This document shows positions 4,207 to 13,210 of a stretch of 15,092 nt of DNA, piece by piece. Source of the stretch: a virus; the UHGV virus genome UHGV-1737584. The stretch is one strand, 5' to 3'. The notes under the pieces are model-generated. The model saw only the letters and a program-made list of their open reading frames with translations. It did not search any database and had not been told where the DNA came from. The translations under genes and the position numbers were made by a program. Positions within the stretch are counted from its first letter, which is position 1, and each line of letters begins with the position of its first letter.

Positions 4207-4562
4207 AGCACCACGTCCTGTGTGATAGTTATATCCCTGATACGAATGGATATTTTCAACTTATCAAAAGCATCTCCCTCGGCTACTGACAAGCCAGAAA
4301 TCGGTATGTCAGGTAAATCTACCGTCAGTTTTTGCAACAGCATTGCCTCAACCGCAATTTGAACATGCGACAAGTTGGTCGGTTCGTGTTTAAACTGCGG
4401 TAAAACATTGCCCCATGACGGATCTCCGTATACCTCACCCTGATAAGTGTTTAGCCACTCATATAAACGAGCGCCCCAGGCCTCCTCCTGGGACTCATAC
4501 GTTTTTACGCCGGATAACTCCAGCGTCAGCAAAGGATCAATTTCGTTATTGTTGGCCATCAA
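4203..4562 (-). CDS. 119-aa small structural protein, possibly baseplate wedge (gp25/W-like size class)
   Basis: Complete ORF; start overlaps the stop of the Sit-like gene (4559-4562) and its stop overlaps the next start. Assignment by size and synteny only (P1 pmgA by position). Confidence 0.5.
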   Translation of the reverse strand: MMANNNEIDPLLTLELSGVKTYESQEEAWGARLYEWLNTYQGEVYGDPSWGNVLPQFKHEPTNLSHVQIAVEAMLLQKLTVDLPDIPISGLSVAEGDAFDKLKISIRIRDITITQDVVL

Positions 4563-7500
4563 TCAACTCTCGCGTAGTCATTCATCAACGGATCATCAAT
4601 TGACAGTGGTACCGTGCGCATAACGCCCGGCTGAGGCGTGCTGACCTTTACGACAGTTCCCTGGCCTTTCGCCGAGTCTTTGGTGTGCTCTTCAATCCTG
4701 GCAAGCAATGAGGTCATCTGCGCAAACAGCCGCTTCGTTTCACCATCAAGTGAAACGGTATTATCAGCCAACTGCATTGTCGGCTTGGCACCGGAGCCAC
4801 CAAGGTCACTAATAACCTGTCCGTCTATCTGCATACGACCGGTTGGTTGCTGCAAATCGTTGGCGGCAGTCGTCACCTGGGACGTGGAGGCTGGTTCAGG
4901 CGCATTATTTTTCCGCATCCCCGGCGAGTTGCGGAGTTTATCGAATAGTCCATCAATCCCCATTTGTGCGCCGAGCTGGTCAAAGTAACTTGAGTTGTTG
5001 GCCACCGGACGCGCTTCTTCAACTGGCATCGGGGTATCAACATACACATTACCAGCTGCTGTTGCGGTCCCCTTCCCTCGTGCACGTTCTTCTAGCGTTC
5101 CCTGAACGACTTCCCGACGCATCCCCCGGCCATTCATGAATTTGTTGACCAGATCGTTAACGCCAACAGCATTGCCGATTTTGTCGACCAGACCGCCTTT
5201 CTCAAACGGGCTATCACCAGGGGTAAACGCCAAGCCAGGGGTAAACGCCAAGCCAGGGGTAAACGCCAAGCCAGTATACTGATCGATAACGGCGTTATCA
5301 GGCAGTGGTCCCCTCACTCCATATTGCGCCCCACCCTGTGCTCCTGCCCCAGGTGTATAGATTTCACCACCTAAATAGCGAGCACGATGAGTATTGACCT
5401 TGATCGCGTACTCACGGTTTTCCTTCGATAAGTCACCGGTGCCTTTTTTCCACTTATTAATAGTGCCAAACCCAGCGTTATATGCAGTGATGGCCTCGTT
5501 TAAGTCTCCATTGGCTTGCTTCAGATACTTGCTCATGAGAAGAGCCGCAGCTTCTGCCGATTTCACAGGATCAAACGATTCACCTTCAGCTAAGCCAGTC
5601 TCTTCACGAGCAATGCCCGTGAACTGAAACATTCCTAGAGCACCAGTTTGGGATTTTGCGTATGGATTACCACCAGATTCAGTTGCAGCAATCGCGTAAA
5701 GAGTGCCTTCAGGAAGACCATATTTATTCTCTAGTTCAGCAAAATACGGAGCTAACTTATCGAGATTTGCCTTACCTTCAGCGCCAAGGCTTCCGACTTT
5801 TACATCTAAGTTGCCATTATTGTAGGTATCAGCAGCTTTCTGAATGTCATTCCCAGTGCCGGTGGTATTACGCGACGATGATGACGAGCTATTTTGACCA
5901 ATAGCTTTATCAATTTTCTGCAACGCGCGATTGCCCGTTTCTACGGCATTTGCATTGATAATCTGATTGGCAGTTTGTTTAACTGTTTTATTGCTATCTT
6001 TCGCTGTGTCCAGTGCCGCATTTATCACGCGGGTAGCAATATTACTCTGTTTGGCATCGGATTCAGTTTTAGAATTAGACGTCTCCTGGTGGCTATTAAC
6101 CGGAGCTTTTAACTCTGGAGTGATTTCTTTCGCATTAGCCTCGCCGATCGGATTGGGTATTTTTGATACAATCATTGCCGCAGGGGTATTTTTAACGGCA
6201 TCAACCGCTGCATCTAATGCTTTACCGGGTAAATTTTTAACCCCATCCCAAATATTACCAGCCGCCTCTTTAATGTGTTTCCCTGGGTTCTTAATGAAAT
6301 CAATTGCACTATCAATTGCATCACTGAAAACCTGTTTCAGGTTATCGACAGTAAAGAAGTCTTTGATGGCATCCAGCTTTTCAAGCAGCTTATTAGATGT
6401 ATCGCTAAACCATGCTGAAACAGCATCACCAATCTTTGCTGTGTAATCATCGAACTTGGTAGAAATCGTGTCGCCAAGGTTAGAAATATATGTTTCTAAG
6501 TTGGTAATCCCACTATCAATGGCCTGGGCAATACTTTCCGTCGAAAATGATTGCAACATATTGCCGATATCCTCAAATCCAAGTGATTTGAGAACCTCAC
6601 CAATGGCGCTGCTAATACCAGATACAAGCCCCCCCATATCAAGAACATTAGCTAACGTATAAGCGGCTTTTTGCTGGAATGATGGATCTTGTCCTGATTT
6701 AAGCCCAAACGCTCGACGTTGCGCTTCTGTATCATTCCAACCGGTTACCGCATCATAAATACCTCCAGCCACTGTGCCGACCAGGGGAATTGCGCGTAAC
6801 GCCCCTTTACCAACTGCCTTTAATCCAAGTTTACCTGCTGCCCGGGCAGCCAAATCTCCGCCTTCATGGGCGAGAGTCTTCTTGCCACCACCGCGTAGCA
6901 TTCCTACAAGTTTCTTTGCCCCCAGAGCGCCAAAAGCGAGTGCTCCAGCTTTTTTCAGCATGCCACGCCCCATTAACAACGACGCGACGCCACCGGCCCC
7001 CTTCCCTAACAGGCTAAATAATTTGGACAGCAAGCCGCCCTTCTTTTTCCCGGTGTTTTTGGCTATCTGATCAAGGGCGCTGAGAATCTTGTCATTGCCC
7101 TCTTTAATTTCGCTGGTCTGCTCCTGAAGTTCCTGAACCGTCCGTTTTTGGGTGTTAACCTGAACGACATCGGCACTATTTTGCGATTTACGCCTAAAAA
7201 AACCTTTTCTACGGCTGTTATCGTCATTGCCACGAATCACATCGGCAATAGACTTTCTGGCACCATTAAGCGATCCACCAACTTCTTTTGATATCCCGCC
7301 AAGCTCCTTCCCTGCGGCCCACAATGGACCAGCAACGGCATAACCTAACGCATCGACGGCACGAGTCTCTGAAGGGTTACCTATGCCTTCAGCTACTTTT
7401 GACAGTTTTTTTAATAAACCTGATTCAGCATTTAGACGCTCATCATCCTCTTTGCGCCTGTCCTTTTCAGCACGTTCAGCACGGGCATCTTCCGCTGCGG

Positions 7501-7987
7501 CCTTACTCCCTGACTTTCCAATAAAACGACCACGCGCATCGCGTTGGTTTTGGCTTTTTTGCGCACCGTCTTTTTGACCGAACATTTCGCGAGCGTGTTC
7601 GGCTGCTTCGGTCCGTTGCGCCTTTACATCTTCTGTTATAGCCTTCTTGCGTCGTTTTTTACCCTTTCGCGTAGTTGATTTGGCCTGCGGTTCCTGTAGA
7701 GCAACATCCTCCTGAACTACACGAGAAACGTCCCCTAAATTAAGCCGTTTCATTGCCTCAACAATAGGGTCCACTGATGGCGCATTGGCCACAAAGTCTG
7801 GCTGGGAATTTTCGATTGTGCGATTTAATGCCGACACACTGCGAGAGACAGGATCAACTGTAGCAACTCGCCCCCCTTTCAAATCTTCAACGGCTTCCCG
7901 AATACCTGCAAGCTCTTCCAGCTCTTTTGCGCTGGCGGTTTCAACCGTCCTTATCACATCGTCAATGTTGGCGTTTTTTCTTTCCAT
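4559..7987 (-). CDS. sit: Structural injection transglycosylase / tape-measure-like protein, 1142 aa, with soluble lytic transglycosylase (SLT) domain
   Basis: Longest ORF in window. Contains GLPEGTLYAIAATESGGNPYAKSQTGALGMFQFTGIARE (aa ~760-800), the family-1 lytic transglycosylase motif with catalytic Glu-Ser (Glu codon at complement 5678-5680). N-terminal part is K/R/E-rich, followed by a Gly/Ala-rich hydrophobic glycine-zipper segment (aa ~300-420). P1 Sit is about 1140 aa as I recall. Confidence 0.9.
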   Translation of the reverse strand: MERKNANIDDVIRTVETASAKELEELAGIREAVEDLKGGRVATVDPVSRSVSALNRTIENSQPDFVANAPSVDPIVEAMKRLNLGDVSRVVQEDVALQEPQAKSTTRKGKKRRKKAITEDVKAQRTEAAEHAREMFGQKDGAQKSQNQRDARGRFIGKSGSKAAAEDARAERAEKDRRKEDDERLNAESGLLKKLSKVAEGIGNPSETRAVDALGYAVAGPLWAAGKELGGISKEVGGSLNGARKSIADVIRGNDDNSRRKGFFRRKSQNSADVVQVNTQKRTVQELQEQTSEIKEGNDKILSALDQIAKNTGKKKGGLLSKLFSLLGKGAGGVASLLMGRGMLKKAGALAFGALGAKKLVGMLRGGGKKTLAHEGGDLAARAAGKLGLKAVGKGALRAIPLVGTVAGGIYDAVTGWNDTEAQRRAFGLKSGQDPSFQQKAAYTLANVLDMGGLVSGISSAIGEVLKSLGFEDIGNMLQSFSTESIAQAIDSGITNLETYISNLGDTISTKFDDYTAKIGDAVSAWFSDTSNKLLEKLDAIKDFFTVDNLKQVFSDAIDSAIDFIKNPGKHIKEAAGNIWDGVKNLPGKALDAAVDAVKNTPAAMIVSKIPNPIGEANAKEITPELKAPVNSHQETSNSKTESDAKQSNIATRVINAALDTAKDSNKTVKQTANQIINANAVETGNRALQKIDKAIGQNSSSSSSRNTTGTGNDIQKAADTYNNGNLDVKVGSLGAEGKANLDKLAPYFAELENKYGLPEGTLYAIAATESGGNPYAKSQTGALGMFQFTGIAREETGLAEGESFDPVKSAEAAALLMSKYLKQANGDLNEAITAYNAGFGTINKWKKGTGDLSKENREYAIKVNTHRARYLGGEIYTPGAGAQGGAQYGVRGPLPDNAVIDQYTGLAFTPGLAFTPGLAFTPGDSPFEKGGLVDKIGNAVGVNDLVNKFMNGRGMRREVVQGTLEERARGKGTATAAGNVYVDTPMPVEEARPVANNSSYFDQLGAQMGIDGLFDKLRNSPGMRKNNAPEPASTSQVTTAANDLQQPTGRMQIDGQVISDLGGSGAKPTMQLADNTVSLDGETKRLFAQMTSLLARIEEHTKDSAKGQGTVVKVSTPQPGVMRTVPLSIDDPLMNDYARVD
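5217..5274 (-). repeat. Perfect tandem repeat, 3.2 copies of an 18-bp unit (CCAGGGGTAAACGCCAAG), encoding (LAFTPG)x3 in the Sit-like protein
   Basis: Read directly: copies at 5217-5234, 5235-5252, 5253-5270 plus a partial CCAG. In frame; translates to TGLAFTPGLAFTPGLAFTPG just C-terminal of the SLT domain. Confidence 0.95.
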
Positions 7988-10233: not shown

Positions 10234-10773
10234 CTACCACCAACTGCTAGCTTTCTTCTCTCTAGCTTTTCCTTCGCTTTGCAGTAAATCTTTACTTCCT
10301 GTAGAAATATTTCTATTTGCATCAGCCTCAGACTGAATTACATCTGTCTTAGCTGCTCTCTCCTTCAACTCCTGCTCTATAAAATCGTTTTCTCGCTGGA
10401 CACGAGCCGCTTTTGCTTGCAGTTCGAGTTTCATGCTTTCGAGTTGCAGCTTGCGAAGCTCATCCTCATAAGCTTGATCTCGCTTCTTGTCATTTGCTAG
10501 CTCGGCTTCTCGTTTCGCTCTACGTTCATTTTCTGCAGCAACACGCTGTTTTTCGCGTGCAGCAGCGGCAGATGCTGCTTTTTCTCTTCTAATACGTTCA
10601 GCTTGTGCTTGTTGGCGAATAAGTTCTTTTCTGGCATCCTCAGCTTGCTGCTCTTTAGCTCGCCCTTCATTTTCCGCTTGAGCAATAGCAGCAATTTGAC
10701 TTTGCAACGAGTTAGCCAAGGCAGTGCCTACACTAAACGTAGAAAAGATTAGAAATAAAATAATTTTATTCAT
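10234..10773 (-). CDS. Exported (signal-peptide) coiled-coil protein, 179 aa, TolA-like charged helical repeats
   Basis: N-terminus MNKIILFLIFSTFSVGTALA is a classic Sec signal peptide. The mature part is a highly charged Ala/Glu/Arg/Lys/Gln-rich predicted coiled coil ending in SSWW. Lies in the P1 sim-locus position. Confidence 0.75.
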   Translation of the reverse strand: MNKIILFLIFSTFSVGTALANSLQSQIAAIAQAENEGRAKEQQAEDARKELIRQQAQAERIRREKAASAAAAREKQRVAAENERRAKREAELANDKKRDQAYEDELRKLQLESMKLELQAKAARVQRENDFIEQELKERAAKTDVIQSEADANRNISTGSKDLLQSEGKAREKKASSWW

Positions 10774-10776
10774 AAA

Positions 10777-11298
10777 TTATTTCTTTTCTGGACAAGTAGC
10801 ATTTGGCTGAATTCGAGTTTCATTATCTTTAGTTGAAATAAGCACAGCAAGCCCCGTTGTAAACTGGCATGCTTTACCAACTTGAGTTGAAGTGAACACC
10901 TTAGTTCCTTCTTTATAAGTCAGTGAAACACCTTCAACAATTGTTTTATCACTAACCAAAGAACCAGCCGCTGCACCAAGAGCCGCACCACCAGTACCGC
11001 CAGCTACAGCACCCAGTGTCGATGTGCCTTTAACATTATAACCGGCAACGCCCCCAGCAACAGCTCCCAGTACCGCACCAAATGTCTGTGCCGCTTCTTT
11101 ATTAGCTTTATTATCAACTTTCACTTTAGCTGGAAGCACAGAGATAATATTGACTGTCTTTGTTTCCTGCTTCGAATTCAATTGAGCGGTATCATAAACA
11201 TCGGCAGCATAATCAGCACCGCTAGATTGACACCCAGAAAGAAGAATTGCAGATACAACAAGAGCGCATAAAGTATACTTTTTAGACATAAGAATCAT
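10777..11298 (-). CDS. Lipoprotein with glycine-zipper segment, 173 aa (or 170 aa from the second ATG at complement 11287-11289)
   Basis: Lipobox LLSGC after a KK-containing hydrophobic leader (MSKKYTLCALVVSAILLSGC). Central GAVLGAVAGGVAGY...GAVAGGTGGAALGAAAGS glycine zipper, typical of SlyB/PCP-like outer-membrane lipoproteins. Two C-terminal Cys. Only 3 bp separate it from the downstream gene. Confidence 0.8.
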   Translation of the reverse strand: MILMSKKYTLCALVVSAILLSGCQSSGADYAADVYDTAQLNSKQETKTVNIISVLPAKVKVDNKANKEAAQTFGAVLGAVAGGVAGYNVKGTSTLGAVAGGTGGAALGAAAGSLVSDKTIVEGVSLTYKEGTKVFTSTQVGKACQFTTGLAVLISTKDNETRIQPNATCPEKK

Positions 11299-11565: not shown

Positions 11566-11596
11566 TTGCACGACACTCATCTGCTCTAATAAATTT
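11566..11596 (+). promoter_or_regulatory. Sigma70-like promoter (TTGCAC-17-ATAAAT) overlapped by a C1-operator-like site (ATCTGCTCTAATAAATTT)
   Basis: -35 at 11566-11571, -10 at 11589-11594. The 15-mer TGCTCTAATAAATTT at 11582-11596 matches the P1 C1 operator consensus ATTGCTCTAATAAATTT as I remember it (15/17) and recurs at 13253-13267. Confidence 0.6.
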
Positions 11597-11634: not shown

Positions 11635-11663
11635 TTGACCTTTTAATCGTTCAGGCTTATAGT
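11635..11663 (+). promoter_or_regulatory. Near-consensus sigma70 promoter TTGACC-17 nt-TATAGT, candidate constitutive promoter for the c4-icd-ant transcript
   Basis: -35 at 11635-11640, 17-nt spacer, -10 at 11658-11663. Lies ~120 nt upstream of the structured RNA and has no operator-like sequence over it. Confidence 0.6.
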
Positions 11664-11783
11664 TTCGCCGTCGTAGCAAATTCTGCGACCGGGTTTAGCA
11701 GCCTGAATGATTGTGCGGACAGCCGCAGATATCCGATATTGCGGTATTTTTGTGTCCGTAAAACCGCGTTACGCCCAAATTAT

Positions 11784-11860
11784 GGTGGGGCGTGATGGGG
11801 AGGCTTCGGCCTGCTGGTTTCACAATCGCCAGTCTGCTAACCCCGTCACGTCCTGCCACC
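11784..11860 (+). ncRNA. c4: c4-like antisense repressor RNA, ~77 nt, structured
   Basis: Nested stems read from sequence: GGUGG (11784-11788) with CCACC (11856-11860); GUGAUGGGG (11792-11800) with CCCCGUCAC (11841-11849, one G-U); internal GGC-UUCG-GCC tetraloop hairpin (11802-11811). Single-stranded segments are complementary to downstream sites at the icd RBS. The 77-nt span matches the reported length of P1 c4, but I chose the ends knowing that length. Confidence 0.55.
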
Positions 11861-11910
11861 TGTTTAGCAGCGGGTAGCAGGTTGTTAAACCTGATTGTGA
11901 GGCCGTAACT

Positions 11911-12132
11911 ATGGTTAATGCCAATCCTTGCGCACGCCAAGAATTCATCTGGCGTTTCTATTCCTGTAAAAAACACCACTATCACTTCGTCATCGCAGCA
12001 ACAGAAGACGAAGCACGCTCTCAATTGCCTGATGGTCCCTGCATTTTTACTGCCCGTTTTTCAACTAACTCGCGCAATTCACTTAGTTACTGGAACCTCC
12101 CCTTCTCTGCCGACGTTCAGGGGGATTTATGA
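11911..12132 (+). CDS. icd: Small 73-aa protein, translationally coupled to the antirepressor gene (Icd-like)
   Basis: ORF with GAGG 8 nt upstream of its ATG; its TGA overlaps the ant start (ATGA at 12129-12132). The RBS region is complementary to the upstream RNA. The 73-aa length and position match P1 icd as I recall. Confidence 0.6.
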   Translation: MVNANPCARQEFIWRFYSCKKHHYHFVIAATEDEARSQLPDGPCIFTARFSTNSRNSLSYWNLPFSADVQGDL

Positions 12133-13172
12133 AAAAACCTCTCGTCACCCGTAATGAAATAGCCGAAGCGATCGCCCTGCATACAACCTGTATGCCGACA
12201 CGGGAGATCCCCGGCGCAATTGCCAACTATTTCATGATAACCAGACGTTTTTATACCCGAACAGATAAGGCTGTGATCAACAAGCTACTGATAGCCGAGA
12301 TCAGGGATTATTTGATTGAACAAGGACGTCTACGTTACGCAACAGTGGCAGCAGAAATGAGAAAGGAGGCACATAGAATGACCGGTAATAATTTGAATGT
12401 TGAAAAACCAGCACCTGTTGCTTCAGCTACGCCATCACCAGCTGTGAATGTTATCTCCAACACTGGAGACACAATCGACAGCCAGACACTGTTAAAGATG
12501 GTCAATGAAGCTCGTAAGTTATGTGGGGAACCAGAGGTTCGGAACAACAAATTCATCGAAAAAATACTCGACGAATTAGAAGGTGAGGACGGTTACACAA
12601 AAAGTGCAACCGTGCCGCCAGGTGGCGGTACGCCTATGGTTGTCATAACCATGACCTACAAACAAGCCCTGCGAGTCGCCGCGCGCGAGTCAAAAGCGGT
12701 CCGCCGTTCGCTGATCGACAAACTGGAAGAATTACAGCAGGCAAACTCCCCTACCCCATCGATCCCCCAGACATTACCAGAAGCCCTACGCCTGGCTGCC
12801 GAGTTAGCAGAACAGAAAATGCAGTTGGAACAACAGCTGGTGGCCGCAGCCCCTAAAGTCGATTTTGCCGACCGGGTATCAGTGGCCAATGGAATCCTGA
12901 TCGGGAACTTTGCAAAGGTCGTTGGACTTAAGCAAAACGCCCTTTTCTCATGGTTGCGCCAGAATGGCATTCTCATGGCTTTTGGAGCGCGCAAAAACGT
13001 ACCGCGCCAACAGTACATCAACGCGGGGTATTTCACGGTGAAAGAAGTGGTGCTGGATGATGAAAATGGCTACCAGATACGGCTGACGCCCCAATTAACG
13101 GGTAAAGGCCAGCAGTGGTTAACTCGCAAGCTACTTGATGCTGGTTTGTTAAAACCAGTAGCAATAGGTTAA
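12129..13172 (+). CDS. ant1: Antirepressor Ant1, 347 aa, with C-terminal ANT/KilA-C type domain
   Basis: Strong SD AGGGGG upstream of the ATG. C-terminal ~130 aa (LPEALRLAAELAEQ...GKGQQWL...LLDAG) is the phage antirepressor C-terminal domain and is paralogous to the KilA C-terminus in this window. Confidence 0.85.
   Translation: MKKPLVTRNEIAEAIALHTTCMPTREIPGAIANYFMITRRFYTRTDKAVINKLLIAEIRDYLIEQGRLRYATVAAEMRKEAHRMTGNNLNVEKPAPVASATPSPAVNVISNTGDTIDSQTLLKMVNEARKLCGEPEVRNNKFIEKILDELEGEDGYTKSATVPPGGGTPMVVITMTYKQALRVAARESKAVRRSLIDKLEELQQANSPTPSIPQTLPEALRLAAELAEQKMQLEQQLVAAAPKVDFADRVSVANGILIGNFAKVVGLKQNALFSWLRQNGILMAFGARKNVPRQQYINAGYFTVKEVVLDDENGYQIRLTPQLTGKGQQWLTRKLLDAGLLKPVAIG
12378..13172 (+). CDS. 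ant2: Nested in-frame antirepressor Ant2 (264 aa) from an internal start
   Basis: Internal in-frame ATG at 12378-12380 preceded by a consensus SD AAGGAGG at 12364-12370. P1 is known to make Ant1 and Ant2 from in-frame overlapping starts. Confidence 0.6.
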   Translation: MTGNNLNVEKPAPVASATPSPAVNVISNTGDTIDSQTLLKMVNEARKLCGEPEVRNNKFIEKILDELEGEDGYTKSATVPPGGGTPMVVITMTYKQALRVAARESKAVRRSLIDKLEELQQANSPTPSIPQTLPEALRLAAELAEQKMQLEQQLVAAAPKVDFADRVSVANGILIGNFAKVVGLKQNALFSWLRQNGILMAFGARKNVPRQQYINAGYFTVKEVVLDDENGYQIRLTPQLTGKGQQWLTRKLLDAGLLKPVAIG

Positions 13173-13184
13173 CAAAAGAAAAAA

Positions 13185-13210
13185 ACCTGCCAGCAAACTG
13201 GCAGGTTTCT
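13185..13210 (+). terminator. Hairpin terminator after ant (9-bp perfect stem ACCTGCCAG / CTGGCAGGT, loop CAAA, then TTCT)
   Basis: Read directly from sequence, 13 nt after the ant stop. The 3' U-tract is short, so termination may be partial. A-rich 5' flank could also let it act on the opposite strand. Confidence 0.55.

Follow-up and report, generated by a model that had tools for sequence, protein, structure and literature searches.

Correspondence of an internal start codon in the antirepressor gene of a P7-like phage-plasmid with the ant2 start of P1 and P7

Does the antirepressor gene of virus genome UHGV-1737584 encode one protein or two? Inside its open reading frame, ant1, a consensus Shine-Dalgarno (SD) sequence stands ahead of an in-frame ATG from which a shorter protein, Ant2, could be initiated. 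We analysed the whole stretch of 15,092 nucleotides, here called the window. With high probability the internal start is the long-known ant2 start of the immI ant1/ant2 pair in a P7-like phage-plasmid of the P1 family, with two starts used on one mRNA.

Nested in-frame pairs are known from Tn5 (Tnp/Inh), phiX174 (A/A*), T7 (gp4A/4B) and lambda (S107/S105), where the short form modulates or partners the long one. The proteins of these pairs belong to families unrelated to Ant. In several of the pairs the short protein works against the full-length one; Ant1 and Ant2, in contrast, reportedly cooperate.

The immI operon of the window

Judged by its sequence, the window comes from a P7-like phage-plasmid of the P1 group and carries the immI operon (Table 1). 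Megablast of the whole 15 kb against P1/P7-type phages gave 97.8-98.2% identity. The ant region matched 26 phage and 782 plasmid records, the best plasmid being E. coli NZ_CP101271 with 99.6%. The genes are arranged as in P7, in the order S (partial), R, 16, bplA, bplB, sit, tubC/B/A, upf50.0, upf50.5, Op(c4), c4, icd, ant1/ant2, Op(rep), kilA and repL. KilA of the window combines KilA-N and ANT domains (PF03374 match, 2e-32).

Table 1. Features of the c4-icd-ant region in the window
Feature	Position	Strand	Remarks
C1 repressor operator Op(c4)/Op51 of the c4-icd-ant operon, TCTGCTCTAATAAATTT	11580..11596	+	P7 protein_bind feature (L093, 11544-11560), shifted by 36 nt; P1 Oc4
Sigma-70 promoter-like sequence, TTGACC-17-TATAGT, equivalent of P1c4/P51b	11635..11663	+	10/12 matches; P1c4 at the aligned position
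a1/b1 target sites for C4 antisense RNA	11657..11709	+	Rfam RF03163, 54.6 bits vs gathering cut-off 46.7
c4 antisense RNA gene, P7 specificity type	11778..11863	+	Rfam RF01695, 69.6 bits vs gathering cut-off 45
icd, 73 aa	11911..12132	+	NCBIfam phage_ICD_like, 52.7 bits; annotated as icd in P1 and P7
ant1, antirepressor long form, 347 aa	12129..13172	+	ORF; 94% aa identity to P1 Ant1, 90% to P7 Ant1
Shine-Dalgarno sequence of ant2, AAGGAGG	12363..12369	+	Same position as the ribosome_binding_site of X15639; invariant in 93/93
ant2 initiation codon ATG, ant1 codon 84	12378..12380	+	86 ATG / 7 GTG among 93 P1-like sequences
ant2, nested in-frame short form, 264 aa	12378..13172	+	249-nt offset from the ant1 start, as in the ant2 CDS of P1/P7
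GC-rich hairpin with flanking T and A runs directly past the ant stop, terminator-like	13181..13210	.	13 pairs; reported on the - strand

The stop codon TGA of icd overlaps the start codon of ant1 as ATGA (12129-12132), which is a signature of translational coupling, and P1 has the same overlap (icd end at 2032 and ant1 start at 2029 in the P1 locus, L001). On the + strand, an A run lies ahead of the hairpin that follows ant.

The recognition bases of the c4 region (11657-11905) are of the P7 type, with the targets TTTAGCA and GATTGTG and the C4 loops CACAATCG...CTGCTAA. In P1, by contrast, both the c4 RNA and its targets are of the P1 type, the targets being TTTGACA and GTTAGTG and the loops CACTAACG...CTGTCAA. 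Compared with P7 the region is near-identical; a single base differs, which lies outside the recognition bases, and the latter are the same. The changes in target and antisense sequences are compensatory, as known for P1 versus P7. Given its recognition bases, the window should therefore have P7 immI specificity and be heteroimmune to P1.

Several further genes of the window follow the P7 pattern or depart from it in small ways. The tape-measure-like gene sit (4559-7987, - strand) encodes 1142 aa compared with 1130 aa in P7, with an SLT transglycosylase domain at residues 747-856; because it is 36 nt (12 codons) longer than its P7 counterpart, all downstream coordinates are shifted relative to P7. 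For gene 16 (1937-2776, - strand) the open reading frame begins with a GTG at 2776, while the real start is the ATG at 2773, which is served by GAGGAGG (-12.3 kcal/mol) and agrees with the P7 annotation. At 10234-11298 (- strand), where P1 has simA/B/C, the P7-type genes upf50.0 (DUF5384, 3e-43) and upf50.5 are found. The product of upf50.5 is annotated as a lipoprotein in P7 and has a weak, sub-threshold TraT-like match (23 bits vs a cut-off of 31); it may be a TraT-like surface-exclusion or serum-resistance lipoprotein encoded at the superimmunity locus.

The internal start and its counterparts in P1 and P7

Direct reading and a script-based re-check placed AAGGAGG within ant1 codons 79-81 (K-E-A). 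The original prediction of this sequence ahead of an in-frame ATG was borne out; its position 12364 denotes the AGGAGG core, one base inside the heptamer. Between the heptamer and the ATG lies the 8-nt spacer CACATAGA (12370-12377), so that the predicted distance of 8 nt between a perfect SD sequence and the ATG at 12378 was likewise found by reading and script, and the surrounding stretch, 12355-12385, reads AAATGAGAAAGGAGGCACATAGAATGACCGG. The ATG is in frame with ant1 (12378-12129 = 249 nt). A 264-aa Ant2 nested in a 347-aa Ant1, as had been proposed, agrees exactly with the curated annotation of P1 and P7, and all figures given earlier for the internal start proved correct. We rejected another in-frame ATG, at 12357 (codon 77), as a possible alternative start; it is without an SD sequence (-1.8 kcal/mol) and reads ATA in the P1 reference.

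In the P1 genome (AF234172), ant1 extends from 48688 to 49731 and ant2 from 48937 to 49731, which gives the same offset of 249 nt and the same product lengths of 347 and 264 aa. P1 and the window also have in common the operon layout, the start at codon 84 and an identical SD sequence, spacer and ATG. Over 40 nt around the site they differ in one base, which makes codon 77 ATG (Met) here and ATA (Ile) in P1. The Ant1 proteins of P1 and the window are 94% identical and diverge over a short part of the middle domain (about residues 153-173). Ant1 of P7 has 348 aa, is 90% identical to that of the window and carries another variant of the middle segment. The P7 record (AF503408) describes ant2 as 'contained within ant1 and translated in the same frame', again with an offset of 249 nt. 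The title of X15639, a P1 record from 1989, names ant1/ant2 as antirepressor proteins 1 and 2, alias repressor bypass proteins A and B (rebA/rebB). Its annotated ribosome_binding_site begins 15 nt before the ant2 CDS, which is the distance from 12363 to 12378 in the window. The P1 annotators also predicted an IHF site 8 nt past the ant2 ATG (2286-2298 in L001); the corresponding sequence of the window, TAATAATTTGAAT at 12386-12398, is identical.

Is the start signal stronger than expected by chance? The bare heptamer AAGGAGG is not enriched in the window, where three copies were found vs 1.66 expected and 48 of 200 shuffled sequences reached three. For this reason our argument is placed on the combination of an SD sequence with a start codon and on the conservation of this combination. 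The duplex between SD and anti-SD at 12378 was calculated at -11.6 kcal/mol and is thus stronger than that of ant1's own start (-9.4 kcal/mol), while every other internal in-frame start codon of ant1, all of which were scored, had -6.3 kcal/mol or weaker. A value of -11.6 kcal/mol was reached by 3 of the 454 ATGs on both strands of the window. Extending the comparison to the 77 internal in-frame ATGs of 16 candidate genes revealed two strong signals, the third best having -6.1 kcal/mol. The second of the two is codon 2 of a GTG-extended open reading frame and represents the real start of that gene; the ATG at 12378 is the sole true outlier among the 77. RNA around the ribosome binding site folded no better than shuffled sequences (z +1.47; 187 of 200 shuffles folded at least as well), which is consistent with an open ribosome loading site.

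A short product might also arise from a separate transcript, driven by a promoter inside ant1, instead of from internal initiation on the operon mRNA. The IHF site predicted just past the ant2 start means that this region has been suspected of binding factors at the DNA level. However, a consensus scan of the + strand between 12129 and 12378 detected no sigma-70-like promoter, and none is annotated there in P1 or P7. Furthermore, the conserved element consists of an SD sequence and a start codon at ideal spacing, which would be needed in either case. Taken together, we regard a separate transcript as very unlikely.

Conservation of the start signal and of the upstream codons

For a comparison of the start signal we assembled 93 P1-like sequences, namely the window and 92 loci from P1, P7, plasmids and genome and viral contigs. 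The loci were retrieved with two patterns, one of which, [AV]IANYFM, does not depend on the start site. AAGGAGG, an 8-nt spacer and an initiation codon were present in 93 of 93 sequences, although the weight of this invariance is limited because most of the sequences are closely related. The spacer (CAT to CAC or CGC, AGA to ATA) and the flanks do carry substitutions. The equivalent of codon 84 was ATG or GTG and never a non-initiator (see Table 1). GTG was found in the seven P1-like contigs L030, L043, L055, L074, L082, L083 and L085, with SD sequence and spacing unchanged; with these alleles, less Ant2 per Ant1 is to be expected. The Ant1 homologues listed were all >93% identical. In one partial variant (P0124, 135 aa), a deletion joins ...RKEAR to KLCSEK, and the internal Met and the linker are gone.

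In a divergent allele group, which includes pLH50-c-C (NZ_CP100503), p95NR1A (NZ_CP021340) and others, the N-terminal domain has 55-59% aa identity to that of the window. In both of the named plasmids icd is followed by ant, and their Ant proteins share with the window the RKEAHRM junction, with AAGGAGGCACACAGAATG, and the KilAC C-terminus. They differ in length (354 aa in pLH50-c-C and 370 aa in p95NR1A) and in the linker; the middle domain of p95NR1A is unrelated, and the records are without an ant2 annotation. The 21-nt block comprising the SD sequence and the ATG is identical to the divergent alleles at 18 of 21 positions, a value exceeded by no other block; the other blocks had 9-16 of 21 in comparison with pLH50-c-C (L003), and one block tied at 18 of 21 in comparison with p95NR1A (L004). 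Directly past the ant2 ATG, nucleotide similarity to these alleles collapses. The number of codons in this analysis is small, with 4 of 6 identical at the start-signal site compared with a background of 16-19 of 42. Coming from few independent lineages and few codons, the comparative statistics are supportive and, taken by themselves, not decisive.

One could argue that a peptide motif, R-K-E-A-H-R-M, brings the SD-like heptamer and the Met along as by-products, that Ant1 is the only protein made and that a short form results from proteolysis in the linker. SD-like sequences do arise inside genes, and RKEAHRM is itself conserved, so that part of the nucleotide conservation is explained by protein constraint. 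Yet AAG, GAG and GCA show no change at their synonymous third positions although pS is about 0.7 elsewhere, and codon 84 changes solely to GTG, which is another start codon. Moreover, RKEAHRM is the last conserved stretch ahead of a hypervariable linker, an odd place for a structural motif, and ant2 is annotated as a separate product in the P1 and P7 records. A by-product of the peptide motif is thus a highly improbable explanation of the signal.

The codons upstream of the internal start bear on the opposite question, whether Ant1 itself is real. Between the window and the divergent alleles these 83 codons have a pN of 0.23-0.24 and a pS of 0.69-0.76, that is, saturated synonymous sites. A pN far below saturated pS indicates real coding sequence under purifying selection and, hence, two nested genes instead of a wrongly called start. 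That the true gene start is 12378, with the 83 codons untranslated or a mis-annotated extension, can hardly be entertained: the internal SD sequence is indeed stronger than that before 12129 (-11.6 vs -9.4), but the 83 codons are under strong purifying selection (pN 0.24 vs saturated pS) and match the N-terminus of phrog_63 (E = 3.7e-26), the ATG at 12129 overlaps the icd stop as ATGA, and every curated record has the longer Ant1.

Proposed function of the pair and architecture of Ant1

For the nested pair ant1/ant2 we propose the following course of events, based on the window and on what is recorded for P1 and P7. A single mRNA with c4, icd and ant would be transcribed from the C1-repressed promoter. 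Ribosomes would reach the ant1 ATG by coupling to icd via the ATGA overlap, and other ribosomes would load independently at the strong, unstructured AAGGAGG and start at the ATG of ant2. The resulting Ant1 (347 aa) and Ant2 (264 aa) would have the C-terminal 264 residues in common, Ant2 being without the 83-residue N-terminal domain. Following the P1/P7 records and the literature, an Ant1/Ant2 complex would then bind the C1 repressor and lytic genes would be derepressed. In a lysogen, translation of icd is blocked by C4 RNA, which base-pairs with the a2/b2 sites in front of that gene, and this block silences ant both translationally and by premature termination of transcription. The C4-mediated block of icd would explain why the strong, independent ribosome binding site of ant2 is silent in lysogens.

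The primary biochemistry of Ant is reportedly the work of Heisig et al. in 1989 and of Hansen in 1989, both in J Mol Biol, and of Riedel et al. in 1993 in FEBS Lett. The P1 record AF234172 notes that the 'product antagonizes C1 repression by formation of Ant1/Ant2/C1 complex', and the P7 record AF503408 has a like statement. Passages in two papers speak of an Ant1-Ant2 dimer or heterodimer that acts on C1 (PMC8546580, PMC8198154). According to these records and papers, Ant1 and Ant2 would act together as a C1-binding complex. That the two forms might bind different partners, as the original prediction suggested, is conceivable. The GenBank annotations and secondary citations point to two polypeptides of about 42 and 32 kDa that would inactivate C1 as a complex. 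By analogy with P1 and P7, both proteins are probably made from the window as well, and would form a heteromer and bind C1 as described in the literature. In a CRISPRi essentiality study, ant1 and ant2 are listed separately as non-essential P1 genes (PMC10695390).

As the nested ant1/ant2 arrangement has been on record for P1 since 1989 and is part of the curated P1 and P7 reference genomes, it carries little weight as a discovery. Its practical value lies in annotation: the ant2 start signal is conserved in all sequences examined and yet omitted by automated calls. In automated (PGAP) records the long open reading frame alone is called, under the name 'phage antirepressor KilAC domain-containing protein', and Ant2 is consequently missing from hundreds of records of P1-like plasmids.

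What distinguishes the two proteins is the N-terminal domain of Ant1. Ant1 consists of this domain (residues 1-83), a variable linker (about 85-113), a middle domain and a C-terminal KilAC/ANT domain at residues 234-336, for which PF03374 gave 106.5 bits vs a gathering cut-off of 25.3 (1.2e-30). Over residues 1-345, Ant1 matches phrog_63, 'anti-repressor Ant', with 3.5e-105, and the 83-residue N-terminus matches the start of this family. Proteins with PF03374 ANT/KilAC correspond to Ant1 in its C-terminal 100 residues, whereas the N-terminal domain lies outside that family. The ant2 start lies where the conserved N-terminal domain passes into the hypervariable linker, which is rich in P, A, S and T. 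Mosaic alleles (370 or 467 aa) whose middle domain is unrelated or duplicated have this start as well. The middle region of Ant is mosaic in that P0121 (467 aa) and L004/P0127 (370 aa) swap or add an unrelated middle module. Some database proteins of 418-420 aa, named 'Icd-like' (P0001-P0003, P0005, P0063), span 100% of Ant1 and resemble fusions of icd with ant1, produced at the ATGA overlap either by a frameshift or by faulty gene calling.

For the domain found in Ant1 only, Pfam contains no model, and for Ant1 there is neither an NCBIfam model nor a sequence relative in the PDB. An exhaustive phmmer search of 1.84 billion proteins gave 16 cluster representatives with this domain, all of them P1-like, and a scan of genome contigs gave six loci, all in Escherichia-type sequence. 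Single-sequence AlphaFold2 modelling of Ant1 was too poor for fold searches (mean pLDDT 40.6, pTM 0.26), and its outline gives a weak hint of helices at residues 8-85 and of absent secondary structure at 86-114. By these results the 83 residues form an orphan, putatively helical domain that is peculiar to P1-like phage-plasmids. It is a tentative idea, which we consider rather doubtful, that they give Ant1 an activity absent from Ant2. If true, the domain would be a candidate for an Ant1-specific activity, e.g. C1 recognition or control of the stoichiometry of the complex. The lysis-lysogeny switch would then be tuned by how much Ant1 is made through coupling to icd relative to Ant2 made by independent initiation, and the ATG-to-GTG alleles (7 of 93) would be natural variants of the Ant1:Ant2 ratio.
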